From the NCBI GenBank assembly GCA_903901225.1, contig CAIUQE010000035.1:9249-73248 (forward strand): DNA of 64,000 bases, written 5' to 3'. The notes below the pieces were generated by a model. The model saw only the letters and a program-made list of their open reading frames with translations, was not told the origin of the DNA and made no database searches. The position numbers and the translations under genes were made by a program. Source of the stretch: Candidatus Omnitrophota bacterium. GTDB lineage: Bacteria; Omnitrophota; Gorgyraeia; Zapsychrales; Fredricksoniimonadaceae. This document shows positions 2,947-57,420 of the stretch, piece after piece (position 1 is the stretch's first letter; each line of letters opens with the position of its first letter).

Positions 2947-5900
2947 TTGAAGAATTGTACGCGAGTGTTGCGTAAATTTATTGCCACCGTATTGATCCTG
3001 GCCTTCACGCTGATGGATCTGCGCGCCTATGCCCAGGGGGTGATCCCCTTGCCGCCGCCAGGCACGCGCCTGGCCCTCAGCCCTATTGTTGCCCCACCGC
3101 TGCTCAAGGGCATCAAGGTGTTCCGTGACGATCCTTTCCGTTTTGATTTTATCCTCGATAAAGGTGACGCGCCGTCCACGGATACGCAGGTTAAAACAGA
3201 TTCAACCCGCCTGATCAAATACTTCCTCGCCGCGCTCACAGTCCCTGAAAAAGACCTCTGGGTCAACCTTTCGCCCTACGAAAAAGACCGCATTGTGCCC
3301 GAAGCCTTTGGCCAGACCGAGATGGGGCGTGATCTTCTGGCCCAGGATTACATTCTTAAACAGATAACGGCATCAGTTCTCTATCCGGATGAGAAAACTG
3401 GCAAGGAATTCTGGGCTAAGGTCTACGCCGAAGCGCAGCAACGTTACGGCACAACCGACATCCCGGTGGACACCTTCAACAAAGTCTGGATCGTCCCGGA
3501 GAAAGCCACCGTCTATGAACACCAGGACGCCGCCTTTGTGGTCGAGAGCGGATTGAAAGTCATGTTGGAAAGTGATTACGTAGCCATGTCCCGGGCGGAC
3601 ATGAAGTCCGCCCCTACAACACAGGGTGTTGCTCTCATGAGCGTAGGGGAGGACCTTGTGTCCTCCCGTAACGAGATCGCAAAAAATGTTTTACGCGAAG
3701 TCATCATCCCCATCCTCGAAAAAGAAGTCAACGAAGGCAAGAATTTCGCCACGCTCCGCCAGGTTTACAACTCCCTCATCCTGGCCACCTGGTACAAGCG
3801 CAAGATCAAAGCCAGCATCATGGGCCGGGCGTACGTCGACCAAAAGAAAACCGCCGGCGTTGACATTGTTGACAAGAACGAGAAGGAAAAGATCTGGGCC
3901 CAATACGTCGAAGCCTTCAAGAAAGGCGCGTACAACTTCATCAAGGAAGAATATGACCCGTCCACGCAAACCACGATCCCCAGGAAGTATTTTTCCGGTG
4001 GGATGGATTGCTCGATGGAGGTGTTCAAGGTAAATGTAACAGATGCGGCTATGCCGGTTGAGGCAATTACCCCAGGACGTGACGTTGTTATCGGTGTAAC
4101 AGGGGCGCTGGAAAAGCCTGCCTTTGAAGAAAATTACAATTTGAAGACATCCGATCAGGACCACGCCATGTTCTCATCGGCGTTAAACATCAAATACAGG
4201 CCTGAGGTCGAACGAATTTATGATATTTACAGCCAGTTCATAAAGGATGGCGGAGGTTATGTATTGCCGTTTTCAAAAGAAAAAGCAGTGAAAAGATTAG
4301 ATTTTCGTTCAGCGGCGAAATCGTATTTTATTGCCGGATGTTATCTTGGTGTTGCCCTTGCTGTAGGTGGTATTCAGTATAGCCTGATACCGGATTCATT
4401 TTTTTTCCAAACAATTGGCAGTTCCATAAAAGTTCTTTCATTAGCGATGTTTTTTTATAAATCTTATACTTCTTTCCTGTACGGCGGGCTTCAGCCACTA
4501 ACTCATAAAGTTATCATGACACGGGCAACAGGTAAACTTGATGCTTTTCATGCGTATGGTATTTCTCATGAGATGGCCCATGTTCTGGAAATGCCAAAAA
4601 ATATTATATATGCTAATGCGTATGGTTTCTTAATGAGCAAGAAACTTGGCTATGAACATTCCAGCTATGATGAGAACATGGCTTTAATTTATGATTTGGA
4701 TATGTTTTCGTCTAAGAATCTGAATGACCATATCTGTCGTGGGCCGGGGTATGCGGTCGCCAATATTATTTTAAAAGAATTTCCCGGCACCTTGTCGGAT
4801 CAGGAGAGGTTGCTTAGAAAATTTCTTCAAGCAGTAGAAAGAAACGAATTTATGCTGGATGAAAGCATAAAAGATGCTTTGAAAAAGACACGATCAAGCC
4901 TGGAAGAGAAAGATTACTTTATAGTTGCTCCCAAACGTGAAAAAAGTTGGATATATCGATATGGGAACGGGATCGCTCAGCTGGCGTTACGGCATTACAA
5001 CAATGACGTTGACGCCGCGTTGCGATATATTTATCGGCTTAGTCGGCAACGGGATTCAAGGTTGGCAGATAAGCCCGTTGATAATGCTATGGAAGAAAAA
5101 AATGACGGCGGGATCAAAGATTTCAATGAAAAATCATTACTTGCCCCCCACCGCCTGACGATCGCCGAAGCCAGGGAGCGCTTGATCGACAGTTTAAAGG
5201 TCATCAAGGCGCATTATCCTGCTTTTCAAAAAGCTTGTTCCGATGGGCTTGAGGTTTTCAAGAACGAAGGAGTTAAGGCATTTGAAAGCAGATCTTATCC
5301 GGTGATCAAGGCAGAGGCCGATGCCCTTCGGGTCCACGTTGACGCGGTGAAGGCATTGCCCGCGTTATTGGGCTTTTCAGAGCCGGAAATGAAAGCCAAA
5401 CTGGATCCGTTCCTGCGGCAGATCGCTGAAGAAGCAAAAGTGGATAAGGTCCTTATTTCGTTCAGGACTGGTTTTTATTATGATTTTTCTTATACGAGCG
5501 GCTTTACGGATGAAGAAATTATGAATTTCAGATTACAGAACGATGAAATTTTCGATGTGATCTCTAATTCCGGAATTCAAATGAGTCCTGAGAAAATAGC
5601 CAAGGGGATGAACGCGTTAAGATCCGCGGGTATGGTTTCAGCACTCGACGTATCAACAGACGCAAAATGGTTGATCAAGATAGAGGATTCTTACATTTCA
5701 ATCGTTATCGGGCGCTCAGCGCAAGGGGTTTCATTGAATGGAGAGCTTACGGATAATGACAGGAAGGCTTTGGCCACGAAGTTGAACGCATTTGTAAGGA
5801 ATGGCCAAGCTCCGTGGTATGGGGTGAGGAAGTTTCTTGACGACAATCAATATAAAACATTTGACGATTTTATGTATTTCTTAAGGCACAACAGCGGGAT

Positions 5901-6819
5901 TGGTCCTTTAAAGGAACACATACTCCCGATCATTTATAATAATATTCCGGAATTGCTGAAAGGATCTCCCGCGCAAGACGGAAGGATTCAGCAGCGGGAT
6001 GATCACATTATTGGAAACATGGTAGAAGTATTAAAACAAACACAACTCCTTGGTAATGTGGAAACATTTTTGCAGTTATTGGAAAAGGGGGCTGAATTTA
6101 AATCTTGGGATATTTCAGGAGAAGTTCATCAGAGAGTCGCGTCATTTAAAGGGATGGCGGAAGACAAGAAGCTCAAGCTTGATATTTCCGGTCTCACAAA
6201 TGAAGCGCTGATCGTCCCTGCGTGCGACCTGAACTGGCTGGATGTGGTGGTGGATAATCTCCTTCAGAATGCCATTAAATATACATCGGCCGGCGCGGTG
6301 AAGGTTCGTCTTTCTAAAAAGATGATGCACGCGGAAGATCCTGATTTAGAACAAGCATTTGCTGTTCTGGAAGTCGAAGATACGGGCATAGGTGTTCCTG
6401 CAGATGAAAGGGTTGCAGTATTGGAGAGAGGATACCGGGCAACGAACGCGATCGCCGCTAAGATCAAAGGCACGGGCATAGGGTTGGATGCTGTTTCTAC
6501 TATTCTGCGCTTGATGCAAGGCGATATTACGGTTGAACCCGGTGAGAATGGAATAGGTTCAAAATTCATCGTCCGCTTGCCGCTTGTTCAAGATCCAAGC
6601 CAGGATCAAGCTGAGGTACCTTTACCCGGCGGCATCGACCTTAACCCGGCGCAACTTGATCTTAAAACGCAGAATTCCGGCGGCGAGATCGCTTTCAATC
6701 TTGACCCCACGTTGCTCGCCCGCCTGCAGAATGCTTCCGGCATTTCACCCGTGATCGTCAGTGTGCGGCCGCTGGACAGCATTTCTGCATTCATGGGGAT
6801 CCAGAAGCCTGTGAAATGA
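2947..6819 (+). CDS. giant (1290 aa) secreted/membrane protein, paralogue A: conserved N-terminal ~330 aa domain, two TM helices, C-terminal GHKL/HATPase_c ATPase domain, conserved ~60 aa C-terminal tail
   Basis: TTG start with an AAAGGA SD 6 nt upstream. Signal peptide ending AYAQG. Residues ~35-365 are ~65% identical to the 17180 protein. N-box LLQNAIKYT, G1 VEDTGIGV and G2 GTGIGLD motifs are present near the C-terminus, but no recognisable H-box. The last ~60 aa (GGIDLN..DL....G..F.DP...) are shared with the paralogue. Confidence 0.75.
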   Translation: MKNCTRVLRKFIATVLILAFTLMDLRAYAQGVIPLPPPGTRLALSPIVAPPLLKGIKVFRDDPFRFDFILDKGDAPSTDTQVKTDSTRLIKYFLAALTVPEKDLWVNLSPYEKDRIVPEAFGQTEMGRDLLAQDYILKQITASVLYPDEKTGKEFWAKVYAEAQQRYGTTDIPVDTFNKVWIVPEKATVYEHQDAAFVVESGLKVMLESDYVAMSRADMKSAPTTQGVALMSVGEDLVSSRNEIAKNVLREVIIPILEKEVNEGKNFATLRQVYNSLILATWYKRKIKASIMGRAYVDQKKTAGVDIVDKNEKEKIWAQYVEAFKKGAYNFIKEEYDPSTQTTIPRKYFSGGMDCSMEVFKVNVTDAAMPVEAITPGRDVVIGVTGALEKPAFEENYNLKTSDQDHAMFSSALNIKYRPEVERIYDIYSQFIKDGGGYVLPFSKEKAVKRLDFRSAAKSYFIAGCYLGVALAVGGIQYSLIPDSFFFQTIGSSIKVLSLAMFFYKSYTSFLYGGLQPLTHKVIMTRATGKLDAFHAYGISHEMAHVLEMPKNIIYANAYGFLMSKKLGYEHSSYDENMALIYDLDMFSSKNLNDHICRGPGYAVANIILKEFPGTLSDQERLLRKFLQAVERNEFMLDESIKDALKKTRSSLEEKDYFIVAPKREKSWIYRYGNGIAQLALRHYNNDVDAALRYIYRLSRQRDSRLADKPVDNAMEEKNDGGIKDFNEKSLLAPHRLTIAEARERLIDSLKVIKAHYPAFQKACSDGLEVFKNEGVKAFESRSYPVIKAEADALRVHVDAVKALPALLGFSEPEMKAKLDPFLRQIAEEAKVDKVLISFRTGFYYDFSYTSGFTDEEIMNFRLQNDEIFDVISNSGIQMSPEKIAKGMNALRSAGMVSALDVSTDAKWLIKIEDSYISIVIGRSAQGVSLNGELTDNDRKALATKLNAFVRNGQAPWYGVRKFLDDNQYKTFDDFMYFLRHNSGIGPLKEHILPIIYNNIPELLKGSPAQDGRIQQRDDHIIGNMVEVLKQTQLLGNVETFLQLLEKGAEFKSWDISGEVHQRVASFKGMAEDKKLKLDISGLTNEALIVPACDLNWLDVVVDNLLQNAIKYTSAGAVKVRLSKKMMHAEDPDLEQAFAVLEVEDTGIGVPADERVAVLERGYRATNAIAAKIKGTGIGLDAVSTILRLMQGDITVEPGENGIGSKFIVRLPLVQDPSQDQAEVPLPGGIDLNPAQLDLKTQNSGGEIAFNLDPTLLARLQNASGISPVIVSVRPLDSISAFMGIQKPVK
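3593..3667. repeat. REPIN-like hairpin doublet, copy A, in frame inside CDS (GGGCGGAC-atgaa-GTCCGCCC ...32 nt... GGGAGGAC-cttgt-GTCCTCCC)
   Basis: Two 21-nt hairpins (8-bp GC stem, 5-nt loop) 32 nt apart. Additional CCCCTAC/GTAGGGG pairing bridges the spacer. Homologous to the copies at 17832 and 10929. Confidence 0.8.
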
Positions 6820-7137: not shown

Positions 7138-7380
7138 CTACAGCCTTTCGATATCCCTGGCCGTTACCTTCTTCGCGGTGTTCTTTTCTTTCTGGTAGAC
7201 GGACTCCAGCCTGGCATATTCCTCATCCGAAAATATTTTTTCGACCGTTTCCAGCGGCACCAGTTCAAGGCGGTTGCCTTTGATATGGATATCAAAAAGC
7301 GCCCCTTCCGCGAGGTGCATTTCATTGATGAGTTTTTTGGGGATCGTGATCTGGTTCTTACTGGTCAGTGTGATGGTCAT
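7138..7380 (-). CDS. AbrB/MazE/SpoVT-family antitoxin (start at internal Met, MTITLTSKNQITIPKK)
   Basis: Swapped-hairpin DNA-binding motif ITIPKKLINEMHL..G. A strong SD (AAGGAG) lies 6 nt upstream of the ATG at 7380 on the minus strand. Forms an operon with the toxin. Confidence 0.65.
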   Translation of the reverse strand: MTITLTSKNQITIPKKLINEMHLAEGALFDIHIKGNRLELVPLETVEKIFSDEEYARLESVYQKEKNTAKKVTARDIERL

Positions 7381-7549
7381 GGACAGCTCCTTATTGTGGT
7401 ATAAGTTTACCATATATTCTGAAATTCCGTAAAGAAGAAAGTAAGGCTATGGAATTGGACTATCGGGTTGCGAACTGGGCCGCAAAATCCGGGTTGACCG
7501 GGTCGATTGAGGCGTTTATAGTAAAGGTGACTATTAATATATTTTCGAT

Positions 7550-10928: not shown

Positions 10929-11009
10929 GGGCCGACCTTGTGTCGGCCCGAAACATTTGCCGGATATCATAAGGATGCATTCTCCGACGGGAGGACACAA
11001 GGTCCTCCC
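10929..11009. repeat. REPIN-like hairpin doublet, copy C, intergenic (GGGCCGAC-cttgt-GTCGGCCC ...39 nt... GGGAGGAC-acaag-GTCCTCCC)
   Basis: Same 21-nt hairpin unit as inside the giant genes. The two hairpins are in mutually inverted orientation. Lies 18 nt after the hflX stop. Confidence 0.8.
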
Positions 11010-11045
11010 CCACGCACCATTTAAACATTCACAGAAAATTTTTTC

Positions 11046-11074
11046 TTGACAAAATCCAAGGTGAGTTGTATATT
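11046..11074 (+). promoter_or_regulatory. sigma70-type promoter TTGACA-17-TATATT
   Basis: Perfect -35 hexamer, 17-nt spacer and TATATT -10, ~150 nt upstream of the MORN gene. Confidence 0.6.
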
Positions 11075-17050: not shown

Positions 17051-17179
17051 AACTCACAACTGGATTTTTTTGTGCCACAAACTTGCATTTTGCTACATTA
17101 TGTGCTATTTTTCTGCTTAAACCACCTATTGACAGATCGACTTTGTTCATAAACCCTTAAATTTTTGAGGATTAATGCC

Positions 17180-20100
17180 ATGAAGAAGACCTTTTATTTT
17201 CGATTTATTTCTGCCTGGATCCTTGTCAGTTTCCTGACAACCGGGGTGGTCCCGTCGGGCGCATACGCGCAGGCGTTGAACCTTCCGGCACCGGGGACCA
17301 TGGTATCCCTGACACCGGCCTATATGCCGATCCTCATGAAGGGTGTCCGGGTGCATCCCGAGAACCCTCTTTTGTTTGACTTTATCCTCGATAGCGGGAA
17401 ATCCGCCCTCAAGGCTGAAAGCCCTGAATTCAAGGCTGAATCCCAAAAACTCATCAAGTATTTCCTGGCGTCATTGACGATCAAGGAAGAAGACCTGTGG
17501 GTCAACTTGTCGCCTTACGAAAAAGACCGGATGATCACCGATGAGCTGGGCAAGACCGAACTGGGGCGTGACATGCTGGCGCAGGATTATATCCTCAAGC
17601 AGTTGACCGCTTCCCTTATATACCCCGAGAAGGATCTCGGCAAAGCATTCTGGGACAGGGTTTACTCCAAGGCGCGGGAACAATTTGGTAACACAGATAT
17701 CCCGGTCGACACCTTCAACAAAGTCTGGATCACAGCCGACAAGGCCAAGGTCCTCGAACGTAACAACGTAGCCTACGTCGTCGGCGCGCATCTGAAGGTG
17801 ATGCTGGATGTGGATTATACCGCTGCTATGCGGGCCGACACAAGGTCGGCCCCTACAACCAATAATGTTAGTGCGAAGGGCGTAGGGGAGGACCTTGTGT
17901 CCTCCCGCGATGAGATCGCCCGACAGGTCATCCGCGACGTCGTCATCCCCGAGATCGAAAAAGAAGTCAACGAAGGCCAAAACTTCGCCATGTTGCGCCA
18001 GATGTTCTATTCCATGATCCTCGCCTCCTGGTACAAGCTCGCGCTCAAGGATGCGCTGCTGAATCAGGTATATAGCAATCAAGCCAAGACCAGCGGGGTC
18101 CTGTCCGACGATCCGGCGGTCAAGGACAAGATCTATACGCAGTATCTGGAAGCCTACAAGAAGGGCGTGTTCAATTATATCAAGGAAGACATGGACGCTG
18201 TGAGTCAGCAGCCTGTGCCGCGGAAGTATTTTTCGGGTGGGCTCAATTTATTTCCCAAGGGATCTGAAACTGTTGAGTATGCGCAAGCGGCAACGCAGGA
18301 GCAGATAGCGAATATTACGTTTTCAAAATTATGGTCTATTTCCGTTCTGGTTACCCGAGAGCGGACGCCACCTTCTAAGGCAACAGAGACGGAGCCGACG
18401 ATCCTTTATGATCTGTGGGGAAGCATGGAAGTTACACCTGCAGTAGATCTCTATAAATTGGAAAGTTGGTGGATAGAAGGGGGAGAATATTGGAAGGCTT
18501 TCGTGAATCTCAAGAAAGCCCTCGATACAGATGCCAAATATACTCGTTTTGATGACATGGGCAAGGCGGAAAATTATATATCTGGAAAAAAATTTAAAGA
18601 AGCTGAAAAGATATTAAGGCAGGTCATATCAGCCAATCCGGAGTATTCATTGGCCTATGCCTATTTAGGGTTGGCCTTATGCGCGCAAGGCAATACTGAA
18701 GAGGCATACAAGAATAATATGAAAGCCGCGGAGCTGGATGCCATTAACAAGATCGAAATAAGAAAATTTCCGCAAAGGCCATTGTCGCGTGCGGCGAGAC
18801 TTGAAAGATATATGCAAATTTTCAGAAAATTTTTTCCTCAAAGAATGACGTATGAAGCTTTTGTGGATCGTGTTTGGGATGGCAGGATCAAGGAAAACCC
18901 CAGGATCAAGGTCCAAACTTATTCGGCGAATAAAGACAAAAAAAGTATTTATGTGGGGAAGTTGAATAAAATTGGCCCATACTTGGAGCTCTTTATTCAA
19001 CCTGAGGAAGGGGATGGGGTAAAAATAGATTCCTACAAAATTAAAAGGATCACTGTTTATCCCGATTTAGCTCAGGTGAAAGAGGCGTCTGACGCGGCGG
19101 AAAAGAGCTTATCTGTTGAAGAAATGATCTCATTGGGACAATTGCATGAACGCCAAGGTGATTTGGAAAGTGCGGAAAAATATTTTCGTGATGCTGTGAA
19201 AAAGAACGGCAATGATGCCAGGGCCCACGCGGTCCTTGGCGTGTTTTTGAGATCTGTGAATCGTCTGGATGAGGCCGTGCAAGAGTTGGAGATAGCTCAA
19301 AACTTGGATCATCAGTATTATCCTGAGTATTTTACCGTCGACGGAATCCAAAAGCTGATAGATGGATATGTAGTTGATGCCATTGAGGATTTTGAAGAGG
19401 CAGTGAAATCAGATGAAGAGATGGCATTGGCTTATGCGTGGTGGGGGATCGCCTTGAATGCCGCAGCAGATAAAAAAGCCAAAAGAGAGGGGGGGCAAGT
19501 CTCGGGATCTCAAAGAAGCGAGGCACTTGGTTATATAAAACACGCGTTGATATTGGATCCAGAAAACAAGGAGATCAAAAGACTTCTTGCCCTTCTTAAG
19601 CCATCCTTTTTATCAAAGGTGAGGTTCGCCAGGGATTTCACCGGGGAAACAATGAGCGCTGAACAGTTTAAAAAAGCGATTCTGACGGGGAAGATCCAGC
19701 CGGGGACCAGGATCAAGATCAAACGGGTCTTTGAAGAAGGGGTTTCCACGGGGATCACGGATAATGTCGTTTTTGGATATGTCGAGACAACGCCCCATAG
19801 CAGTACGCCTGACATTGTTTACAATCTCCCGTTATTTACAGGTGATGGAAAAATAGTGAGTCTTGATAAAATTGTTGAGGTTACTGTTTACGACGCGTCA
19901 ATGGAAACTATCACGGCGCCCGAAGGCCTGGAGAACTCAAATCAAACATTGACCATCAAGTCCGACGCGGCGGAAAAAATATCAGGGTCAATGCGTCAAA
20001 CGGATGCTGAAATTATGGCAGGCCTGGAAGAAATAATGGCTCTTCCTGATGCATCGAAAGAAGCCATGGAGCAAGTTTTGTCAGATTTTGCGCAGGGAAT

Positions 20101-21202
20101 TCCTCCCACAACGAATATATCTGATGTGCCGACAGATCAGGAATTGGAGGATTTGGTTTTCAAGGTTTCGGAATTTGCGACAAGTAACAGTGAATTTATT
20201 CAAGCGTTGCAAAGAGTAACGCCTGAGCAGATCGAGGAATTTGTCAGGATGGATTTGCGTTTTGACGAAGATAAGAAACCGGCACTCATTCAATTGATGC
20301 TGAAGATCAGGGAGCTCTCCAGTGATCACGTTCTTGCGGCTGGAAGGATGTTGGGGGAAAACCCAGAAGTATCAGCAAATTTTATTAAAACCGTTAATCA
20401 ATTGGTTTATATCTTTGAACAGGGAAAGCTTGGCGGGTTGGTCAAAGTGGACAAGGAAAGGCAAAGAAGGATACATCTGATAAAAGGCGCATTTGAATAT
20501 GTCCTGTTTTTTGCGATGGCTTTGGTTGGAGAGATGGGGGCAGAACAGCTTTCTGAAGTTCGTGGGAATTTGTCGAGGTTTTTTATGGTGGCGATAAGTA
20601 TAGCTTGGTTGATCAATAAATCGGGGATGGACATTTCAAATCCATTAGGAACAAAGTCACCTGCGTTGATCAAGCCGGTTTATTTCAATTCTATGTTGAA
20701 GGCGGATATGGTAAAGATGGCCGAGGATTTTTTGAAGGATAATAGATCGGTCAGGGCGGCCTCCGAAAATATCGCGTTATTGAAACTCAAGAAGCGGTTG
20801 ATGCTTTGGCTGAAGAACACCATGTTCATTGATAAAGATTCACGTAACACGGCCTTTAAGGGGATATCAACGTATATCCGTGTTGTTGAGGTGCAGAAGG
20901 GCTTGTACAAAGTAGAGCTTGATCCCGATGCCAAGATGGATGGCGCGCAAAAGGGCATGGACCAGGCGGAAAATGTTAAAGAACCTGAGCAGCATAGAGA
21001 TAATGCCGGAGTTACAAACGGCGGTATCGACCTCAACGCCAAAAAGATGGACCTGGACGTGGCCAGGGATGGCAAGGGTGTTGAGATGACATTTGACCCG
21101 GCCATGGTCGCGGAGTTCCGCAAGGGTAATTTTACGGGAGTTGAAGGGATCATCCTCAAGATCGTCCCGATCGAGAACCCCCAGGCGCTCCTGGGGCTGT
21201 AG
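17180..21202 (+). CDS. giant (1340 aa) secreted protein, paralogue B: conserved N-terminal domain, TPR repeats, conserved ~60 aa C-terminal tail; no ATPase domain
   Basis: GAGGA SD 8 nt upstream of the ATG at 17180. Signal peptide ending AYAQA. The N-terminal ~330 aa and C-terminal ~60 aa are homologous to the 2947 protein. The middle contains TPR-like repeats and is AT-rich. Confidence 0.75.
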   Translation: MKKTFYFRFISAWILVSFLTTGVVPSGAYAQALNLPAPGTMVSLTPAYMPILMKGVRVHPENPLLFDFILDSGKSALKAESPEFKAESQKLIKYFLASLTIKEEDLWVNLSPYEKDRMITDELGKTELGRDMLAQDYILKQLTASLIYPEKDLGKAFWDRVYSKAREQFGNTDIPVDTFNKVWITADKAKVLERNNVAYVVGAHLKVMLDVDYTAAMRADTRSAPTTNNVSAKGVGEDLVSSRDEIARQVIRDVVIPEIEKEVNEGQNFAMLRQMFYSMILASWYKLALKDALLNQVYSNQAKTSGVLSDDPAVKDKIYTQYLEAYKKGVFNYIKEDMDAVSQQPVPRKYFSGGLNLFPKGSETVEYAQAATQEQIANITFSKLWSISVLVTRERTPPSKATETEPTILYDLWGSMEVTPAVDLYKLESWWIEGGEYWKAFVNLKKALDTDAKYTRFDDMGKAENYISGKKFKEAEKILRQVISANPEYSLAYAYLGLALCAQGNTEEAYKNNMKAAELDAINKIEIRKFPQRPLSRAARLERYMQIFRKFFPQRMTYEAFVDRVWDGRIKENPRIKVQTYSANKDKKSIYVGKLNKIGPYLELFIQPEEGDGVKIDSYKIKRITVYPDLAQVKEASDAAEKSLSVEEMISLGQLHERQGDLESAEKYFRDAVKKNGNDARAHAVLGVFLRSVNRLDEAVQELEIAQNLDHQYYPEYFTVDGIQKLIDGYVVDAIEDFEEAVKSDEEMALAYAWWGIALNAAADKKAKREGGQVSGSQRSEALGYIKHALILDPENKEIKRLLALLKPSFLSKVRFARDFTGETMSAEQFKKAILTGKIQPGTRIKIKRVFEEGVSTGITDNVVFGYVETTPHSSTPDIVYNLPLFTGDGKIVSLDKIVEVTVYDASMETITAPEGLENSNQTLTIKSDAAEKISGSMRQTDAEIMAGLEEIMALPDASKEAMEQVLSDFAQGIPPTTNISDVPTDQELEDLVFKVSEFATSNSEFIQALQRVTPEQIEEFVRMDLRFDEDKKPALIQLMLKIRELSSDHVLAAGRMLGENPEVSANFIKTVNQLVYIFEQGKLGGLVKVDKERQRRIHLIKGAFEYVLFFAMALVGEMGAEQLSEVRGNLSRFFMVAISIAWLINKSGMDISNPLGTKSPALIKPVYFNSMLKADMVKMAEDFLKDNRSVRAASENIALLKLKKRLMLWLKNTMFIDKDSRNTAFKGISTYIRVVEVQKGLYKVELDPDAKMDGAQKGMDQAENVKEPEQHRDNAGVTNGGIDLNAKKMDLDVARDGKGVEMTFDPAMVAEFRKGNFTGVEGIILKIVPIENPQALLGL
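17832..17906. repeat. REPIN-like hairpin doublet, copy B, in frame inside CDS (GGGCCGAC-acaag-GTCGGCCC ...33 nt... GGGAGGAC-cttgt-GTCCTCCC)
   Basis: Same position in the protein alignment as copy A. It encodes RADTRSAPTT...VGEDLVSSR. Confidence 0.8.
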
Positions 21203-21219: not shown

Positions 21220-21921
21220 TTAACCCGCGGGTGGTCCTGAAAGGGCCTGCAACATGACAATGGTGTCTTCAATAAGCTGTTTTCTGGCCCATTGTTTTTG
21301 ATCTTCGTCCAGGGCGGTGCCCAATCCCTGCAAGATGTTCCTGGGCGTAAAAGTCTTCCTGATGAACTTGATCGTCATCTGGATCAATTCATCCGTCCCC
21401 TTGCCTGTCCGTTCACGGATCAGGTCAGAATCAGCGCGGAATCCTGACTTGAGGAAATACCAGATATCATACAGATCCCGGGCGACAGGTGTTTTACGGT
21501 CAGTCAAAGCCACCAGTTTATTCGTCAGAAGGGTGGTTTCCTCGGGGATAGTGAGGGAAACGCCCAGGAACAGGACAGGTTTGAATTTGTTAGCCGTCCA
21601 AAGCCTTTTGTTAAGCTCGATCTTGATGTTGGGATAACCCGCGCCGTAGTCAAGGACACCCAAAAGTGTAAAGTGTTTGTCTTGCCAGTCGAGGATGCGG
21701 CCCTCCCGGGCCAGGATGGAGCGTAAGCGCGCGACGTCATCATCGGAGAAAGGCTTGAGCATATCGAAATCCAGGTCAAAAGAGAAGCGGGGAAGGCCGT
21801 AGAAGAAGAGCGCGCACGTGCCGCCTTTAAAGGCGATCTTCCCGGGAAATGCTTTGGTAATGGACGTCAGCAAGCTTGTCAAATATCGGCGATGAAGCGC
21901 CTGGTCAAACTTGCGTTCCAT
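21220..21921 (-). CDS. AbiEii/AbiGii-family nucleotidyltransferase toxin (type IV TA / abortive infection)
   Basis: FKGGTCALFFYGLPRFSFDLDFDM nucleotidyltransferase motif. Convergent with giant gene B, with 17 bp between stops. Confidence 0.75.
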   Translation of the reverse strand: MERKFDQALHRRYLTSLLTSITKAFPGKIAFKGGTCALFFYGLPRFSFDLDFDMLKPFSDDDVARLRSILAREGRILDWQDKHFTLLGVLDYGAGYPNIKIELNKRLWTANKFKPVLFLGVSLTIPEETTLLTNKLVALTDRKTPVARDLYDIWYFLKSGFRADSDLIRERTGKGTDELIQMTIKFIRKTFTPRNILQGLGTALDEDQKQWARKQLIEDTIVMLQALSGPPAG

Positions 21922-22516
21922 AAAACTTACGCGCTTTCTTTTGCACGGTTAAAGGGAAAATACCACATAATTGTTTCAGATAGCTCCGGTCAAGGCGATC
22001 CGGAGTATCAATGTCAGGCATAAAACCGAAATACAATGAATCCAGGATGGCCCGTTCGGGGCAGGCGATAGAAACATTGTTTTTTGTGATGATCCCTTCC
22101 TGATGAAAAAACAATTCTTTCTTTATGGAGTAGTAGGCGTACGTGATGCTTTGGATCTTGCGCCGATAAGAGAGAAGGGCTACGGAATCAATGCTTTTGC
22201 GCTGCTGAAAATTGATCCCCGCGCTTGCCAAAGCGCTGTTAAAAGACACATACGAAGGCGTGATCACTAAATTAGCCAGCGCACGCGTGTCATAATTCTC
22301 GTCAATGGCATAATAGCCCTTGGCCAGCCTGAGGATCAGCTTCCGTTCCACCATGCGGGCGGCGCTGATCTTGGCGGTCAGCGCGCTGTCCTTCCAGAGT
22401 ACACGAAGATCCTGCGGACGGAAAACCGTTCGCCCGGAACTCATCAAAATTTTCAATCGCGTTGATGCATTCATATGCGATAGAAGTATACAACATTGTA
22501 TCCTTGGATGCAACAT
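21905..22516 (-). CDS. AbiEi-family antitoxin/transcriptional regulator (start may be the internal Met at 22474)
   Basis: N-terminal AbiEi-type winged helix (GRTVFRPQDL...RKLILRLAKGYYAI). Overlaps the toxin gene by 17 nt. Confidence 0.65.
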   Translation of the reverse strand: MLHPRIQCCILLSHMNASTRLKILMSSGRTVFRPQDLRVLWKDSALTAKISAARMVERKLILRLAKGYYAIDENYDTRALANLVITPSYVSFNSALASAGINFQQRKSIDSVALLSYRRKIQSITYAYYSIKKELFFHQEGIITKNNVSIACPERAILDSLYFGFMPDIDTPDRLDRSYLKQLCGIFPLTVQKKARKFYGTQV

Positions 22517-44333: not shown

Positions 44334-45293
44334 ATGAAAAAGATCCTGGCCGTCAGAAACGACCGTTTCGGCGAGTTCCTGCTGAATATCCCGGCATTGC
44401 GGGCGATCAAGGAAACTTATCCCACGGCCGAATTGCATGTGATGGTCGCGCCCGCGGTCGTGGAATTGGCCCGGGCGGTTCCGTTCATTGACAAGATCCT
44501 CGAGCGGCCCTTCGGGCGCCGCGCTTGGGGTGAAGATATCGCGCTGGTCTGGCAGTTGCGGCGCGAACACTATGACGCCGCGATCGTCCTCAACCCGACG
44601 CGGGAAGCGCATCATATTGTTTTTTGGGCCGGTATCCCGTGCCGTATCGGTTACGCGCGCAAGCATCCCTTTTTGCTCAATCGCACCCTGCCCGATAAAA
44701 AACACCTGGGCCTGCGCCACGAGGTGGAGTATAACCTTGAACTCGTTGCCTTGATCGGCGCGGCGACGCAGGATCGTTCTTTGGAGCTGGCGATCCCGGC
44801 TGAGGTCCAAGCCGCGGTTGCCGCCAAATTCGGGATAACGCCCGGCAGTATTGCCGTCCATCCCTGGACGAGCGATCCCGTCAAGCAGTGGCCGCTGGAA
44901 AGGTTCACAGAGTTGGTACGGCGTCTGGCTGAAAAGGAAACCGGCAAGGTCATCATTATCGGTCGACCCGAGCCCTGGCAGATTAGTATTCCCTCCCCCC
45001 GGTGGGGAGGGGTAGGGGAGGGGGGTCGTAACATCCTCGACCTAAGCGGCCGCACAACCCTCCTCGAAACCGCCGCCATCCTGAAGCAATGCCGTTGCCT
45101 CGTGTCGTGCGACAGCGGCCCGGTCCATTTGGCCGCGGCCGTGGGCGCGCGCACCGTGGCGCTTTTTCGCAACGACATACCCGGGAAAAACCCCGAGCGC
45201 TGGGGGCCATGGGGCACGGGCGCGGGGCATGTTGTTGTTCAGGCTGCCGGCGTGGACCGGATCACGGTCGAGGATGTGGCGGGTAAGATTTGA
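44334..45293 (+). CDS. glycosyltransferase family 9 (heptosyltransferase-like)
   Basis: GT9 C-terminal motif LVSCDSGPVHLAAAVGARTVALF. Start taken at MKKILAVRND. Confidence 0.7.
   Translation: MKKILAVRNDRFGEFLLNIPALRAIKETYPTAELHVMVAPAVVELARAVPFIDKILERPFGRRAWGEDIALVWQLRREHYDAAIVLNPTREAHHIVFWAGIPCRIGYARKHPFLLNRTLPDKKHLGLRHEVEYNLELVALIGAATQDRSLELAIPAEVQAAVAAKFGITPGSIAVHPWTSDPVKQWPLERFTELVRRLAEKETGKVIIIGRPEPWQISIPSPRWGGVGEGGRNILDLSGRTTLLETAAILKQCRCLVSCDSGPVHLAAAVGARTVALFRNDIPGKNPERWGPWGTGAGHVVVQAAGVDRITVEDVAGKI
45004..45025 (+). repeat. G-quadruplex motif GGGGAGGGGTAGGGGAGGGGGG preceded by complementary CCCTCCCCCC (inside the GT9 CDS)
   Basis: Four G-tracts of at least 4 nt with 1-2 nt loops. 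Encodes a Gly-rich insertion (PRWGGVGEGGR). Confidence 0.5.
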
Positions 45294-45345
45294 CGGGCCG
45301 CGGGTTACGACTTGGATGTCGGATAAATGCATGTTTGGAGGGGGC

Positions 45346-46200
45346 ATGGAAGATTTGAAACAGTGCGCTGTATGCCAAAGTAAGAGCCTTGCTGTTTTTG
45401 ATAAAACTGGCCATATTAAAATTTGCAAAGAATGCGGGTATAAATTTACAAGTCCGCGGATTGCGACGACGAAAGAAATTTCCGATATGGATCAGAAATA
45501 TGAGCGGGAATTTATAAAGGGTTTTGATCCTGCCCGGGCAGAGCATTTATATTTAAGGCGCGTGGGATTGGTCCGGAAATACCTTTCTCGCGGGGCGATC
45601 CTTGACGTCGGCGCTGGCCCGGGGACTTTTTTATATTTCCTGAAGGCGGCAGGCAACTACCAGTTGCATGGGACCGAAGTTTCACAAGCGTGTGTTGCCT
45701 GCGCAAAGAATGGTCTGGGTGTTTTGTTGGACCAGGGCATATTGGAAGCGATCAGGTATCCTGACGCGTCTTTCGACGGGGTGGTTTTGCTCCATGTGTT
45801 TGAGCATTTGCCGGACCCGGTAGTTACGTTGCGGGAAATTGCGCGGATCCTGAAACCCGGCGGGTTTGTTTTCATTGCTGTTCCGAATGATTCGCTTTTA
45901 GGGCGCAAGGGGTATTTAAGATACGCGCTTCAGAAGTTTGTCGGGATGAGGAAGAAACTGATGTATCCTGATTATGTGAAGGAAGGCAATTGGCACCTTT
46001 CGCATTTCACGCCATCTGTTTTACGCAAGACTTTGGAAGTGGCCGGGTTCTCCGTTAAAGAGGCGACGGTGGATGATGCCTGGGGGGATATTGTCAAGCC
46101 CTGGCATAAGCGGGGCCGACTTACGTTGGCATTGTTGATGAACAAGATATTCGGTTGTATTCTTTATGATGCTCAATTCTTTGTCGGACAGAAAATTTAA
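45346..46200 (+). CDS. class I SAM-dependent methyltransferase with N-terminal zinc ribbon
   Basis: CxxC...CxxC ribbon, then motif I LDVGAGPG and VLLHVFEHL. Start chosen at the Met with a GGAGGG SD. Confidence 0.65.
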   Translation: MEDLKQCAVCQSKSLAVFDKTGHIKICKECGYKFTSPRIATTKEISDMDQKYEREFIKGFDPARAEHLYLRRVGLVRKYLSRGAILDVGAGPGTFLYFLKAAGNYQLHGTEVSQACVACAKNGLGVLLDQGILEAIRYPDASFDGVVLLHVFEHLPDPVVTLREIARILKPGGFVFIAVPNDSLLGRKGYLRYALQKFVGMRKKLMYPDYVKEGNWHLSHFTPSVLRKTLEVAGFSVKEATVDDAWGDIVKPWHKRGRLTLALLMNKIFGCILYDAQFFVGQKI

Positions 46201-46270
46201 AGGCTCCGGCATGAAAAGACTCGACGTGAGTTGTTCAAGGGACAAAGTCAAGGGTTCCGTGCAGGGAGCG

Positions 46271-47050
46271 ATGCCAAAAATATCCGTTGTTATCATTACA
46301 AAGAATGAAGAACCGCGTATCAGGAAAGCGTTGGCGTCTGTGCGTTCATTCGCCGATGAAATTGTTGTTGTCGACGATATGTCCACGGACTGTACGCGTG
46401 AGATCGCGGCGCGGGAGTTCCAGGCTAAAGTTTTTCAGCGGCCGCTGGAAAAGGATTTTGCCGCCCAGCGTAATTTCGGCGCCCAACAGGCGTCATCCGC
46501 GTGGATTTTTCCCATGGATGCCGACGAGTTCATTTCCGATGCGGTGGGCGCCAGGATCAGGGAGGCGATCGGGGCCGCGGGTGACACGGCGGCCTTTGAG
46601 TTGCGGCGCCTGAATTATTTTGTCGGAAGTCCTATTCGCCACGCCGGCGCGTATGGTTATTACGTCAGGCTTTACCGGAAAGACTGCGTCGCTTACCATG
46701 GCCCCGTGCATGAACAACTTGAGGTCAGGGGAGTTGTTAGCCGTATCGACGGAGATATCTGTCATTATCCTTTTGAAACATTGGCACCATTCTTTGATAA
46801 GGCTGTCCGTTACGCCGAACAGGAGGCCGAGCTTTATTGCCAGGCGCGGCCCCATGTCAGCGCGAAAGAGATCCGTTACCATTTGACGTGGAGGCCTTTG
46901 AAAACATTCTGGAAGATCTATGTCAGAAAAAAAGGGTACAGGGACGGTTTGCCCGGGCTTGTCTGGTGTGTCGGCAATGTCATCGGCCCGCTGATCAAAT
47001 GGATGAAGATCTGGGAGAAGGCGGAGCGGTCCGGGTTGCTGGCGCCTTGA
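46271..47050 (+). CDS. glycosyltransferase family 2
   Basis: ISVVIITKNEE...VVVDDMSTD GT-A motifs. Paralogue of the 56647 gene. Confidence 0.7.
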   Translation: MPKISVVIITKNEEPRIRKALASVRSFADEIVVVDDMSTDCTREIAAREFQAKVFQRPLEKDFAAQRNFGAQQASSAWIFPMDADEFISDAVGARIREAIGAAGDTAAFELRRLNYFVGSPIRHAGAYGYYVRLYRKDCVAYHGPVHEQLEVRGVVSRIDGDICHYPFETLAPFFDKAVRYAEQEAELYCQARPHVSAKEIRYHLTWRPLKTFWKIYVRKKGYRDGLPGLVWCVGNVIGPLIKWMKIWEKAERSGLLAP

Positions 47051-47059
47051 AAGGAAACA

Positions 47060-47773
47060 ATGGAAGATAATGCACGCGCGTATCACATCAATGAGCCGGT
47101 CTTTGTCCGGACAAAAAAGAAGTTCAATTTCGGTAAACTTGCGTATGAAAGATACGTGAAGGCGGTATTCATCAATGAACGGATCATTGAGTTGCCGTTC
47201 GTTATTCAGGGGCTCGCTTCACTCAAGCGGGGAGCAGCTGTCCTCGATGTGGGGTGTATGGAAAGCCTGTTGCCGATGCAACTCGCCGGGCTGGGTTATC
47301 ATGTGACAGGCCTGGATTTCAGGAAATACCCTTTCTTTTTCCCTGGCCTTGATCTTGTCCAGGCGGATGCGACAAAAATGCCGTTGGTCGACCGGTCATT
47401 TGACGCGGTGACGTGCGTTTCAATGATCGAACATGTGGGGCTTGGTCATTATCAGGACCCTTGCCATCATCCTGATGCCGATGCGGACGTTGTCCGTGAA
47501 TTTGAGCGTGTGTTGAAGCCGGGGGGGCTCCTGTTATTGTCAGTGCCTTTTGGTGTCCTGACAACAGGGGTGGTTCAGCGGACGTATGACGCGGCGCGCC
47601 TCAAGAAAGCGCTTGGCGCTTTCCTTGTTGAGGAAAAAAGATATTATATCCAGCGCCGTGACCAACAGCATCTGAATGATTTTTGGCAGGAATGCGACGA
47701 GCCGGAAGCTTCCGGAGTACAGGCTGTTGATAAAACGGCGTGCGTGTGCCTGATAAAAGCCAGGAAGCCGTGA
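47060..47773 (+). CDS. class I SAM-dependent methyltransferase (DUF268-like)
   Basis: AAVLDVGCMES motif I and downstream methyltransferase motifs. Confidence 0.6.
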   Translation: MEDNARAYHINEPVFVRTKKKFNFGKLAYERYVKAVFINERIIELPFVIQGLASLKRGAAVLDVGCMESLLPMQLAGLGYHVTGLDFRKYPFFFPGLDLVQADATKMPLVDRSFDAVTCVSMIEHVGLGHYQDPCHHPDADADVVREFERVLKPGGLLLLSVPFGVLTTGVVQRTYDAARLKKALGAFLVEEKRYYIQRRDQQHLNDFWQECDEPEASGVQAVDKTACVCLIKARKP

Positions 47774-47777
47774 TCTT

Positions 47778-48935
47778 ATGCGTATTGGTTTTGATGCGAG
47801 AATATTGACATTGCCAAGATGCGGAGGGGTGACTGTTTTTTTGCGACTCCTGGAACATCTTCCGTTGTTAGATGATCAGTTGGAGCTTGTACTTTTTTTC
47901 CCTCGGCCTTTTTTGCCGGAGTATCAGAGATACTTGAAACATGACCGGATCGTTTGTGTCCAGGTTGCGGAGCGCGTCAGCGATATAAGCCGTTGGCCCA
48001 ACAGACAATTGTCGCCCCTTCTTCGGGAGCAAAGGATTGATATTTTTCATCAACCGTTCAATGCGGATGGCCCGTTCTTTTGCGCTCCTTGTCCTGTTGT
48101 TGTAACGATCCATGACCTGATCCCGTGGGTGATACCAGGTATTTTTCGCAAGGCCGTTAAGGCGCTACGTTATAAAGTCAGGAATATACTTTGGGCACAT
48201 GCCGCGGCAAGAGTACACACGGTCTCTGAAACCAGCAAATTCGATATTATGCGGCTTTGCCGGGTGCCTGCGACGAAAGTCCTGGTAACGCACCTGGGGG
48301 CTGATGACATCTATAGTTGCGCAATTGCTCCAGGAGAAGAGCAGGAGATCCTTCAGCGGTACAGTCTTGTGGGAAAAAGATATGTGGTTAACATGGGGGG
48401 GCTCAATCAATTGAGGCGAAACCCTGATTTCATTATTGAAGGGTTTGCAAGGTACCTGGACCGGACGGGCGACGATAGTTTTTTGGTTATTACAGGGCAA
48501 GTTCTTAAACAAGATGGTTTTTTTGATCGGGTGAAGGCTAAGATGGTGAAAGAGGGCATAAATGATCGTGTCATACTCACAGGATTCCTTTCCAACAAGG
48601 AGTTGAAAGTTGTCCTGTCGCATGGACTGGTATCAGTTGTTACATCGCTCTATGAGGGGTTTTGCTTGCCTTTGACCGAATCTTTTTCATGTGGAATTCC
48701 AACAATTGCCAATCACGCCGGCTCTATTCCTGAGATCGCAGGCGATGCGGCTATATTGGTGGATCCTCGGAAACCTGATGAGTTGGCAGGACATTTGCAG
48801 TTGTTGATGCAGGATGAGAATAGGCGCGCGGTATTGTCACGTCAAGGAAGAGAGCGGGTTAAACAGTTTCGTTGGGATGAAATGGCCCGGGGAGTCCTGG
48901 CCATGTATCATTCTGTCGGAAGATCGAGAGCCTGA
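47778..48935 (+). CDS. glycosyltransferase family 1/4 (GT-B)
   Basis: GT4 C-terminal domain with the E..E motif (SLYEGFCLPLTESFSCGIP). Confidence 0.8.
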   Translation: MRIGFDARILTLPRCGGVTVFLRLLEHLPLLDDQLELVLFFPRPFLPEYQRYLKHDRIVCVQVAERVSDISRWPNRQLSPLLREQRIDIFHQPFNADGPFFCAPCPVVVTIHDLIPWVIPGIFRKAVKALRYKVRNILWAHAAARVHTVSETSKFDIMRLCRVPATKVLVTHLGADDIYSCAIAPGEEQEILQRYSLVGKRYVVNMGGLNQLRRNPDFIIEGFARYLDRTGDDSFLVITGQVLKQDGFFDRVKAKMVKEGINDRVILTGFLSNKELKVVLSHGLVSVVTSLYEGFCLPLTESFSCGIPTIANHAGSIPEIAGDAAILVDPRKPDELAGHLQLLMQDENRRAVLSRQGRERVKQFRWDEMARGVLAMYHSVGRSRA

Positions 48936-55553: not shown

Positions 55554-56647
55554 GCGTGCCGTTCATTGATTTTACCGAACAGAATAAAATGATCCGCAAG
55601 GCGGTCGACGCGGGGCTTGAACAGGTGATCGCGAAAGCGTCATTCATCATGGGGCCGGAAGTGAAGAAATTCGAGGATGAGTTCGCGGCTTTTTGCGGCG
55701 TGAAATACGCGGTGGGCGTGAATTCCGGGACGGACGCGCTGTACCTTGCTTTGGCGGCCATGGGTGTCGGGGAAGGTGACGAGGTGATCCTGCCGACGTT
55801 CACGTTCATCGCCACGGCCCTGTGCGCGTCTTATACGGGCGCCCGGGTCAAGTTCGTGGACATCGATGAGCATTCCTACAATATGGACCCCGCGAAGCTG
55901 GAGCAGGTGATCACGCCGCGGACCAAGGTCATCATTCCCGTGCACCTTTACGGGCAGATGGCGAACATGGACGAGATCCTGGCGGTCGCCCGCCGGCGCG
56001 GCGTGGCGGTGCTCGAGGACGCCTGCCAGGCGCACGGCACGCGTTACAAGGGCCAGCGCAGCGGGTCCATGGGCAACGGCGGTTGTTTCAGCTTTTATCC
56101 GACCAAGGGCCTGGGCGCCTGGGGCGACGGCGGCATGGTCGTGACCAATGACGCGAAACTGGCCGAGATGGTGCGGATGCTCAGGGATTACGGGCGCACG
56201 GACCGTTATGCCCACAAGTTCAAGGGGCACAACTCGCGGCTGGACACGGTGCAGGCCGTTGTGCTTTCGGAGAAGTTGAAACACCTGGACGCGTGGAACA
56301 GCTTGCGCCAGACGGTGGCCGGATATTACGCCAGGCACCTTGCCGGATCGGGGATCATTGTGCCGCAGACACTGCCTGACCGGGAGCATGTCCATCAGAC
56401 CTATGCCGTCCGCCTGAAGGACCGCGCCCGCGTGCTGGACCGGCTGAAGGAGAAAGGCGTCACCGCGCTGATCCATTACCCCATACCGATCCATCTGCAG
56501 GAAGCATACGCCGACGCCGGATTCAAGGCGGGGGATTTTCCTGTTTCCGAGAAAGTCGCTGACGAGATCCTGTCGCTGCCCATGTTCCCGCACATGACGG
56601 AGGCCCAGGTCATTGAGGTTGCTGCCGCGCTCAAGGGAGCCCTGTAA
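55550..56647 (+). CDS. DegT/DnrJ/EryC1-family aminotransferase (canonical Lys)
   Basis: PLP lysine in FYPTKGLGAWGDGG and full DegT fold. Confidence 0.85.
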   Translation: MSVPFIDFTEQNKMIRKAVDAGLEQVIAKASFIMGPEVKKFEDEFAAFCGVKYAVGVNSGTDALYLALAAMGVGEGDEVILPTFTFIATALCASYTGARVKFVDIDEHSYNMDPAKLEQVITPRTKVIIPVHLYGQMANMDEILAVARRRGVAVLEDACQAHGTRYKGQRSGSMGNGGCFSFYPTKGLGAWGDGGMVVTNDAKLAEMVRMLRDYGRTDRYAHKFKGHNSRLDTVQAVVLSEKLKHLDAWNSLRQTVAGYYARHLAGSGIIVPQTLPDREHVHQTYAVRLKDRARVLDRLKEKGVTALIHYPIPIHLQEAYADAGFKAGDFPVSEKVADEILSLPMFPHMTEAQVIEVAAALKGAL

Positions 56648-57420
56648 TGTTCCCAGTACCGGTGGCGGTCGTCATCATCGCGAAGAATGAAGAAGACAAT
56701 ATGGAGGCCTGCATCCACAGCGTCAAGGGGTGGGCCGCCGAGATCATCGTGGTCAATGACAATTCCACGGACCGCACGGTGGCCATTGCCGAGGCCTGCG
56801 GCGCCGTTGTCCATCATCGCACGATGGACAATGAGGGCATCCACCGCAACTGGGCCGCGGCCCGGGCGACGAGCGCGTGGGTCCTCTATCTTGACGCGGA
56901 CGAACGCGTGACGCCGGAGCTTCGCCGGGAGATCGATGCGGTGCTGCCCGGCACAGCGCACGTGGCCTTTGCCATACCGTTCAAGACCTATATCGGCAAT
57001 TACTGGGTGGACCATTCCGGATGGTACCCGGGGTCGAAGACCAGGCTGGTCCTGAAAAGCAAATTCCGTTATGAGGAGGCACCAGTCCATCCGCGCGTGT
57101 TCCACGAGGGGACCTGCGGGCATTTGACCGGGGATATCGTGCATTACGGTTATCCTGACCTGGCGCATTTTCTCGCCAGCCTTAATCGCCAGACGACGCT
57201 GGAAGCGCAGAAGTGGGTCGATACCGGACGGCGCATGTCCATGCTCGCGGGATTTTGGCGCATGGTCGACCGGTTCTTCCGTTCCTATATCGGCAAGGGC
57301 GGCTGGAAGGGCGGGTTCATGGGTTTTGTGATCGCTTATTTCGCCTCGCTGTACCAGGTCATGAGCTACATCAAATATTACGAGATCATCAAAGGCATCA
57401 AAGAGCCCGTGAAAAAATGA
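56647..57420 (+). CDS. glycosyltransferase family 2
   Basis: VAVVIIAKNEE...IIVVNDNSTD GT-A motifs. Confidence 0.75.
   Translation: MFPVPVAVVIIAKNEEDNMEACIHSVKGWAAEIIVVNDNSTDRTVAIAEACGAVVHHRTMDNEGIHRNWAAARATSAWVLYLDADERVTPELRREIDAVLPGTAHVAFAIPFKTYIGNYWVDHSGWYPGSKTRLVLKSKFRYEEAPVHPRVFHEGTCGHLTGDIVHYGYPDLAHFLASLNRQTTLEAQKWVDTGRRMSMLAGFWRMVDRFFRSYIGKGGWKGGFMGFVIAYFASLYQVMSYIKYYEIIKGIKEPVKK

Follow-up and report, generated by a model that had tools for sequence, protein, structure and literature searches.

A GC drop inside single genes that probably marks exchangeable cores in a modular protein family of Omnitrophota

Results

Two genes share their ends and differ in their cores

We analyzed a stretch of 64,000 nucleotides from a Candidatus Omnitrophota bacterium (assembly GCA_903901225.1, contig CAIUQE010000035.1, positions 9,249 to 73,248 of the forward strand), referred to here as the window. 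It carries two long open reading frames (ORFs), gene A and gene B, in which the GC content falls sharply between two conserved ends. Gene B has the same architecture as gene A and an unrelated core. The two proteins are 53% identical over the first ~355 amino acids and 30-33% identical over the last ~70, with no similarity between; the similarity ends at residue 355 of A and 362 of B and restarts 64-76 residues before the C-terminus. The parts of both genes are listed below by position in the window, with the GC content at third codon positions (GC3).

2947-6819, plus strand: gene A, an ORF of 1290 amino acids with a TTG start; signal-peptide-like start, N domain, mosaic core and C tail
3037-4002, plus strand: N domain of gene A, residues 31-352, ending in RKYFSGG; GC3 0.68, typical of the genome
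4003-6624, plus strand: AT-rich variable core of gene A, residues 353-1226; GC3 0.44, four-fold-site GC 0.48; no similarity to gene B
4129-5061, plus strand: sub-cassette A1 of gene A, residues 395-705, with hydrophobic segments and a HEMAH motif; GC3 0.39
5080-5124, plus strand: A1/A2 junction of gene A, DNAMEEKNDGGIKDF, read directly from the sequence
5125-6588, plus strand: sub-cassette A2 of gene A, containing HATPase_c; GC3 0.47-0.48
6226-6588, plus strand: HATPase_c within A2, residues 1094-1214; Pfam E = 4.7e-19
6625-6816, plus strand: C tail of gene A (GGIDLN...); GC3 0.69; 30-33% identical to the gene B tail
17165-21202, plus strand: gene B, 1345 amino acids from the TTG at 17165, called as 1340 amino acids from the ATG at 17180
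17270-18241, plus strand: N domain of gene B; GC3 0.71
18242-21016, plus strand: AT-rich variable core of gene B, with TPR repeats at about 18566-19414 (Pfam TPR families); GC3 0.47
21017-21199, plus strand: C tail of gene B (GGIDLN...); GC3 0.79

A Pfam scan of the two proteins returned HATPase_c for A, TPR families for B and nothing else. HATPase_c stood alone in gene A, where no HisKA family matched at E ≤ 0.1, and we therefore ruled out a canonical two-component sensor histidine kinase, in which HATPase_c would be accompanied by HisKA/DHp. NCBIfam matches to gene A were restricted to the ATPase end and scored far under their cut-offs, and PADLOC found nothing in A or B apart from a weak match to the ATPase.

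Exact copies of both products (1290 amino acids for A, 1340 for B) were recovered on all 15 contigs read for each gene and were listed in 26-27 blocks of the sequence collection. As the exact products were present on every contig read, the two ORFs are not assembly chimeras. The rapid diversification that the initial annotation had proposed was thus not seen on short time scales. The assembly of one sample, ERZ1426617, splits the gene A locus into a partial gene of 412 amino acids and the protein P0121, whose first residue is the Met in DNAM|EEKND; the two calls part at ~4872-5089, inside cassette A1. This split call may be a frameshift, a real variant or an error.

The composition switch is synonymous and falls on the homology borders

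Mean GC was 0.425 at 4030-6200 and 0.441 at 18240-21000, compared with 0.554 for the whole window, and the two cores supplied the only 2-kb windows with GC below 0.48. Windowed GC and codon-position analysis thus confirmed the AT-rich cores, with their drop in GC3, where the initial annotation had placed them. The conserved ends, which had been described as genome-like at ~60% GC, are genome-like in GC3, but their actual GC is 53-56%. The AT-rich stretch of gene A had been drawn too short at 6200: HATPase_c (6226-6588) still has a GC3 of 0.47, so the AT-rich synonymous composition runs to ~6600 (about 6585-6624).

GC3 in both genes thus passes from ordinary values in the N domain (A 0.68, B 0.71) to 0.44 and 0.47 in the core and back to 0.69 and 0.79 in the tail. 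The 51 other genes of the window had a mean GC3 of 0.70 (sd 0.07, minimum 0.48); the gene at the minimum, the only one that low, encodes a glycosyltransferase and belongs to a polysaccharide cluster. GC at four-fold degenerate sites fell from 0.74-0.77 outside the cores to 0.48-0.53 inside them. The amino-acid make-up stayed constant across the switch, with FYMINK at 0.29-0.30 and GARP at 0.22-0.24 on both sides. The GC drop in A and B is purely synonymous.

Maximum-likelihood segmentation of GC3 placed the change point of gene A at codon 361, nucleotide 4030 (support 4021-4213), and those of gene B at codon 354, nucleotide 18227 (support 18170-18260), and at codon 1284, nucleotide 21017. The log-likelihood ratios were 37-39 against a permutation maximum of 9.2. 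With a single change point, A scored 28.8 and B 26.4, while 40 of 41 other genes scored 8.6 or less and one scored 18.3. No properly called gene in the window had a comparable internal GC3 switch.

Nucleotide similarity to 80 related loci ended at 4002-4017 in gene A (at 4069 in one case) and at 18241-18246 in gene B. The change points at 4030, 18227 and 21017 lie near the ends of both protein and nucleotide similarity, and the compositional breakpoints therefore coincide with the loss of homology, as had been claimed at the outset. Composition also varied within a core, with a GC3 of 0.39 in A1 and 0.47-0.48 in A2.

The dinucleotide distance of the cores was 81 and 107, against 45 ± 15 for background windows, but it was raised in the N domains too, so the test does not discriminate. 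The long T runs cited in the initial annotation exist, though at 4399-4406 (T8) and 4450-4456 (T7) rather than at 4397-4404 and near 4446. A/T runs of at least 7 were not in excess over codon shuffles in either core (P = 0.13 and 0.48). Features of a phase-variable or hypermutable locus were accordingly absent, with no homopolymer excess and no variation among the 15 contigs per gene.

A methyltransferase/glycosyltransferase cluster at 45229-48935 (GC3 0.48-0.62) was the sole other AT-shifted stretch, and its dinucleotide signature was normal. The outlying score of 18.3 belonged to an ORF at 57213-58016, in which GC3 rises from 0.36 to 0.75 at codon 83. A mis-called start probably explains this switch, as the ORF overlaps its preceding neighbor (56647-57420) at the listed start and would really begin further downstream.

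Genes A and B belong to a large family of Omnitrophota proteins

At least 1402 homologues of the N domain (the N-terminal ~350 amino acids) were found; the named ones came nearly all from metagenome-assembled genomes (MAGs) of Omnitrophota, several of them from single MAGs. At least 592 stretches in species-representative genomes encode the family, with several per MAG. The members share a signal-peptide-like start (a basic n-region, a hydrophobic stretch and ...AYAQ), an N domain of ~320 amino acids, a replaceable core of 0 to more than 1600 amino acids, and a C tail of ~60 amino acids. The N domain contains the invariant motifs WVNLSPYE, GRDLLAQDY and FNKVW and ends in RKYFSGG. Both A and B have the signal-peptide-like start, the N domain running from WVNLSPYE to KYFSGG and the C-terminal GGIDL tail.

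The tail, which starts with GGIDL, was present in 63 of the 68 complete ORFs of the fetched loci. A hidden Markov model (HMM) of the tail matched 77 ORFs, in every case at their C-terminal end, and the tail was almost never seen without the N domain. One relative, P0005, lacks a core altogether and has just the N domain and the tail. At two loci, L003 and L028, these modules are split between separate ORFs, which may be pseudogenes or sequencing errors. Same-strand family genes frequently stand in tandem (loci L001, L014, L044, L048, L057, L059, L064, L073, L074 and L081).

Neither Pfam nor NCBIfam had a model matching the N domain or the tail, P0005 had no NCBIfam family at all, and a literature search turned up no mention of the motifs or of the proteins that carry them. 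The family appears to be undescribed, and what is new in it is the pair of conserved ends around an exchangeable middle.

The cores carry very different domains. We surveyed 53 cores with Pfam at E ≤ 1e-5 and listed the 25 most frequent of 48 families. HATPase_c (5) and SAM methyltransferases (5) led the list, followed by HEAT (4), TPR (2) and radical SAM (2), and single cases were Glu/Leu/Phe/Val dehydrogenase, alanine dehydrogenase, PPDK_N, histidine phosphatase and PP2C. No toxin domain occurred among these 25 most frequent families. Cores of other members contained ankyrin, HAD or HD-like parts, the last of these read from the sequence.

Closely related N domains carry unrelated cores

A search of 5.8e9 proteins returned three relatives of core A, all of them members of the family. 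P0121 is 100% identical to A over 576 amino acids and comes from the same locus in another sample. P0122 has an N domain, a core and a tail, and its whole core is 51% identical to A2 over 514 amino acids. P0123 has an N domain, then unrelated sequence, then a segment 40% identical to A1 that directly precedes its tail. Because the two pieces are found separately in P0123 and P0122, core A is a mosaic of A1 and A2. Outside its TPR stretches, core B had no relative among the same 5.8e9 proteins or, by exhaustive HMMER search, among 1.84e9 cluster representatives.

The relatives of gene A, ordered by identity of the N domain to that of A, were as follows.

P0001: N domain 84% identical to A; core unrelated (P-loop-like)
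P0002: N domain 77% identical to A; core unrelated
P0004: N domain 74% identical to A; core unrelated
P0006: N domain 73% identical to A; core unrelated
P0005: N domain 73% identical to A; no core
P0122: N domain 66% identical to A; shares A2
P0123: N domain 54% identical to A; shares A1

The nearest relatives by N domain thus carry unrelated cores, while the proteins that share core pieces have more distant N domains, and from this discordance we conclude that cores have been replaced. Core pieces were shared in 15 of 2278 pairs among 68 relatives; most of these pairs had distant N domains, and some pieces were reordered. The view of the initial annotation that cassettes sit on a conserved scaffold is borne out by this discordance and by the position of the composition switch on the homology breakpoints.

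The A1/A2 junction, DNAMEEKNDGGIKDF, resembles the DxAM...GGIDL signature of the tail start, and the tail HMM gave no score there. The resemblance suggests that the junction could be a vestigial tail start left where two family genes fused. Across the family, cores contain an excess of the motif D-x-A-[ML] (97 observed, 36 expected). The motif is concentrated in the first 50 amino acids after KYFSGG, lies within 30 amino acids before GGIDL in 12 genes, and recurs inside the tail as DPAM; gene A has it at residues 366, 405 and 712. It might serve as a linker or a processing site, or as a stretch of micro-homology.

Gene B was compared with the syntenic position in metagenomes, located by way of dnaJ. 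The closest relatives that this yielded are still distant (DnaJ 75-78% identical), and in them a family gene directly downstream of dnaJ, where gene B also lies, is a conserved feature. The N domains of these genes are 47-57% identical to that of B, their cores are unrelated to its core, and total protein length ranges from 667 to 1549 amino acids. The family genes downstream of dnaJ lie at these positions of their own loci.

L083: 2447-7093
L086: 12695-14695
L087: 3896-5896
L092: 1342-1881
L096: 12614-15337
L120: 11524-12333
L142: 3681-6290

The 80 species-representative loci had only the N domain in common with the window and showed no synteny with it. No nucleotide-level match to core A or core B was found among the related loci searched.

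The GC3 offset of the core is family-wide

GC3 was compared with the host background for the 49 family genes whose flanking ORFs covered at least 3 kb, giving these differences.

N domain: GC3 minus host background -0.008, not significant
Tail: GC3 minus host background -0.02, not significant
Core: GC3 minus host background -0.117, lower in 44 of 49 genes, p = 1e-11

The difference between core and N domain was independent of host GC3 (rho -0.04). GC3 of the core and of the N domain was 0.35 and 0.45 in low-GC hosts, 0.42 and 0.52 in intermediate hosts, and 0.49 and 0.60 in high-GC hosts; against host GC3 the slope was 0.57 for the core and 0.58 for the N domain. The hosts sampled span GC3 values from 0.33 to 0.77, and the same contrast within the ORF was reproduced across them. 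In a meta-profile of 62 genes, GC3 ramped down over 40-80 codons after KYFSGG, stayed ~0.10-0.12 low, and came back up within 20 codons, with the step exactly at GGIDL. The drop of 0.24 GC3 in the window is at the strong end of the family distribution, about twice the family mean.

Repeat elements and neighboring genes

A repetitive extragenic palindrome (REP)-like element of ~80 nt lies inside the N domain of both genes, and a third copy lies between genes.

3592-3672, plus strand: REP-like double palindrome in gene A, translated in frame as part of an N-domain loop of low conservation; RNA fold -49.5 kcal/mol, z -5.2
17829-17909, plus strand: REP-like double palindrome in gene B, in frame in the equivalent loop of the N domain, with inverted-repeat arms of 27 nt; RNA fold -48.2 kcal/mol, z -4.9
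10988-11013 (within 10930-11070), minus strand: third REP-like copy, intergenic, after hflX, with one mismatch

The 26-mer GTAGGGGAGGACCTTGTGTCCTCCCG is identical in A and B. Other family members have different repeat-like peptides at the same loop (KDEALPRLN and IARSEATKQS).

Downstream of gene A are an ORF of 98 amino acids and a MazE-like ORF on the minus strand (7138-7413); downstream of gene B, also on the minus strand, are AbiEii and AbiEi (21220-21921 and 21905-22516). At another locus a BrnT-like toxin gene precedes P0005 (L001, 1968-2264). The toxin-antitoxin and defence modules that adjoin family genes suggest that the family occupies variable genome neighborhoods. Directly upstream of gene A on the same strand are the end of a secretin gene of 519 amino acids (4-474) and three ORFs without a Pfam match (478-2483); this secretin was the one secretion gene seen in the window. 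No flanking repeats and no tRNA genes were found there. A tblastn search of the window with both cores, N domains and tails found none of the silent core cassettes that the initial annotation had suggested looking for.

Discussion

We consider it probable that A and B arose long ago as paralogues within a large and so far unannotated family of modular Omnitrophota proteins, that members of this family keep the N domain and tail but replace, fuse and reshuffle their cores within the family, and that the GC drop marks the border between the modules. The drop would then separate parts of a gene that differ in evolutionary persistence. The N domain and tail would be long-lived and would have taken on the synonymous composition of ordinary host genes. 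The cores would turn over fast by replacement, fusion and reshuffling of in-family cassettes, and would carry the AT-shifted synonymous composition that is typical of accessory DNA. Exchange could proceed by recombination in or beside the conserved modules, as might happen between paralogues in tandem. The AT offset itself could come from a short residence time, AT-biased mutation, and weaker selection or weaker biased gene conversion on segments without a homologous partner.

Several observations weigh against this account. No recombination event was caught directly, and no nearly identical cassette was seen in two contexts. Between genomes, the DNA of the N domains is only 66-79% identical, a low level for homologous recombination to act on. 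We detected no recent gene conversion between the two genes: over 593 nt they are 71.5% identical, and their longest run of exact identity, 28 nt, is a REP-like element. The constant offset and equal slopes against host GC3 fit evolution in place equally well. The AT offset may stem from any of three causes, namely short residence, AT-biased mutation with weaker selection, or absent biased gene conversion. Similarly, the N domain and tail may serve the export, anchoring or sorting of a variable cargo, a role read from sequence features only, and the predicted structure of the tail has a predicted local distance difference test (pLDDT) score below 50.

Evolution in place is the strongest competitor, although we regard it as unlikely. 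The cores would not have been exchanged at all: being weakly constrained, they would have diverged past recognition in their present place and drifted to a lower GC3 under AT-biased mutation combined with weaker codon selection or weaker biased gene conversion. The independence of the offset from host GC3 and the slope shared with the N domain are consistent with this, as are the orphan status of core B outside its TPR repeats, the lack of a nucleotide-level match to either core, and the stability of both products in the population. However, the nearest relatives by N domain have cores of other domain families and lengths (P-loop-like in P0001, HATPase_c in A), and core A is a mosaic of pieces from two other members, with shared pieces reordered between genes. 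Because unrelated domain families are attached to closely related N domains, and because of the mosaicism, divergence in place is insufficient alone. Further points against it are the well-conserved HATPase_c, no less AT-rich (GC3 0.47) than the core around it, and a GC3 that steps up within 20 codons at the tail start.

A bolder account of the same modularity is doubtful. The N domain and GGIDL tail would form a phylum-wide scaffold of the host-dependent Omnitrophota that exports or displays interchangeable, normally cytoplasmic domains as effectors on host or prey cells; cassettes would be swapped at GGxD/DxAM borders, and the AT composition would be the footprint of the exchange. The cargo in such a scheme comprises GHKL ATPases, methyltransferases, radical SAM enzymes, dehydrogenases, phosphatases and HEAT/ANK/TPR repeats.

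The initial annotation had raised horizontal acquisition. If the cores had recently arrived from outside the lineage, out of an AT-rich donor, and had not yet adjusted in composition, the switch would be sharp and synonymous only, and such import agrees with the outlying dinucleotide signature of the cores (81 and 107 against 45 ± 15) and with the accessory toxin-antitoxin and AbiE modules that adjoin both genes. We nevertheless judge it very unlikely. The offset is family-wide and independent of host GC: cores are AT-richer than their host even in low-GC hosts and track host GC3, and a fixed donor pool predicts neither. Homologues of the cores were found only within the same family, the dinucleotide distance of the N domains is raised too, and the window has no tRNA gene and no flanking repeat. 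A horizontally acquired genomic island was rejected on similar grounds; its composition would be atypical as here, but tRNA gene, flanking repeat and out-of-family homologue were all lacking, and the offset also occurs in low-GC hosts.

Functional codon choice, in which cores would be kept rich in rare AT-ending codons that slow translation for the folding or export of a long cargo, appears less credible still. An effect that is purely synonymous, family-wide and locked to the module boundary is what it would produce. However, the same offset is found in low-GC hosts, where AT-ending codons are common, the sub-cassettes A1 and A2 differ in GC3, and we know of no precedent for a rare-codon regime over 300-1600 codons. 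An assembly chimera, in which the conserved N domains and tails of a multi-copy family misled the assembler into joining reads of a low-GC relative into a high-GC contig, can be practically dismissed, since unbroken ORFs of 1290 and 1345 codons cross both junctions, the exact products recur on 15 of 15 contigs read per gene and in 26-27 blocks, and 62 genes, taken from many MAGs and studies, share the profile.

Among known systems, polymorphic toxin systems, including MafB and the CdiA-CT of contact-dependent inhibition (CDI), were reportedly described by Zhang, Aravind and co-workers in 2012. They resemble the present family in being multi-copy, in their conserved N-terminal module with abrupt loss of homology, in cassette replacement and in the AT shift of the variable region. 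In contrast, their variable part, with the toxin, lies at the extreme C-terminus, whereas here 63 of 68 ORFs end in a conserved tail and no toxin family was listed; nor does a same-strand immunity gene lie directly downstream of A or B. Of the defining features tested, only the conserved N-terminal module with abrupt loss of homology was found. The likeness to a polymorphic toxin locus drawn in the initial annotation is thus architectural only: there was neither a toxin domain among the core families listed nor a same-strand immunity gene or a silent cassette in the window.

Cargo proteins of type IX secretion combine a signal peptide and functional domains of great diversity with a short, conserved sorting domain at the extreme C-terminus, and the layout of the A/B family, with its signal-peptide-like start, diverse domains and short conserved C-terminal domain, is alike. 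However, the A/B tail is only ~60 amino acids long and has no counterpart (such as the Por secretion tail) in NCBIfam or Pfam, and the family has a conserved N domain of ~320 amino acids that type IX cargo lacks. It also belongs to Omnitrophota, not Bacteroidota, and its secretion is a prediction.

In Rhs elements the classical GC switch lies inside one ORF at the border between conserved and variable parts (PMC7259588). A and B have a similarly sharp intragenic switch at that border, and variable parts are likewise swapped between copies. However, Pfam found no YD or RHS repeats or core domain in A or B, and neither a downstream immunity-type gene nor an orphan tip was found at either gene. 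The variable part of A and B is internal, with a conserved tail after it, and the direction of the contrast is reversed: the conserved core of E. coli rhs is the compositionally atypical part, whereas in A and B the variable part deviates and the conserved parts are host-like.

The PE/PPE proteins, a mycobacterial family (PMC13578627), are also lineage-specific and multi-copy, with a conserved N-terminal domain, a highly variable remainder and a link to export. They have no sequence relation to the present family, their variable parts are GC-rich repeats, and they have no conserved C tail.

Within a species, coding DNA that is conserved and long-lived has a higher GC content than mobile, accessory or variable coding DNA, irrespective of genome GC (Bohlin et al. 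2017, PMC5303225). The contrast seen here differs in that it lies inside single ORFs, with borders resolved within tens of codons. The compositional principle is thus already known, and its occurrence within single ORFs is what was seen here. Because one ORF with the same transcription and translation carries differing synonymous compositions, the family offers a within-gene test bed for the GC gap between core and accessory DNA, in which mutation bias, selection, biased gene conversion and residence time can be tested as causes inside single genes.

Omnitrophota, bacteria that are uncultured and for the most part ultra-small, are inferred to depend on hosts or to live as predators (PMC10066038). 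Phylum-specific, multi-copy and unannotated, with a signal-peptide-like start, two conserved end modules and an exchangeable middle in which enzyme or protein-binding domains are often found, the family is a plausible candidate for the repertoire through which these little-understood bacteria interact with other cells.

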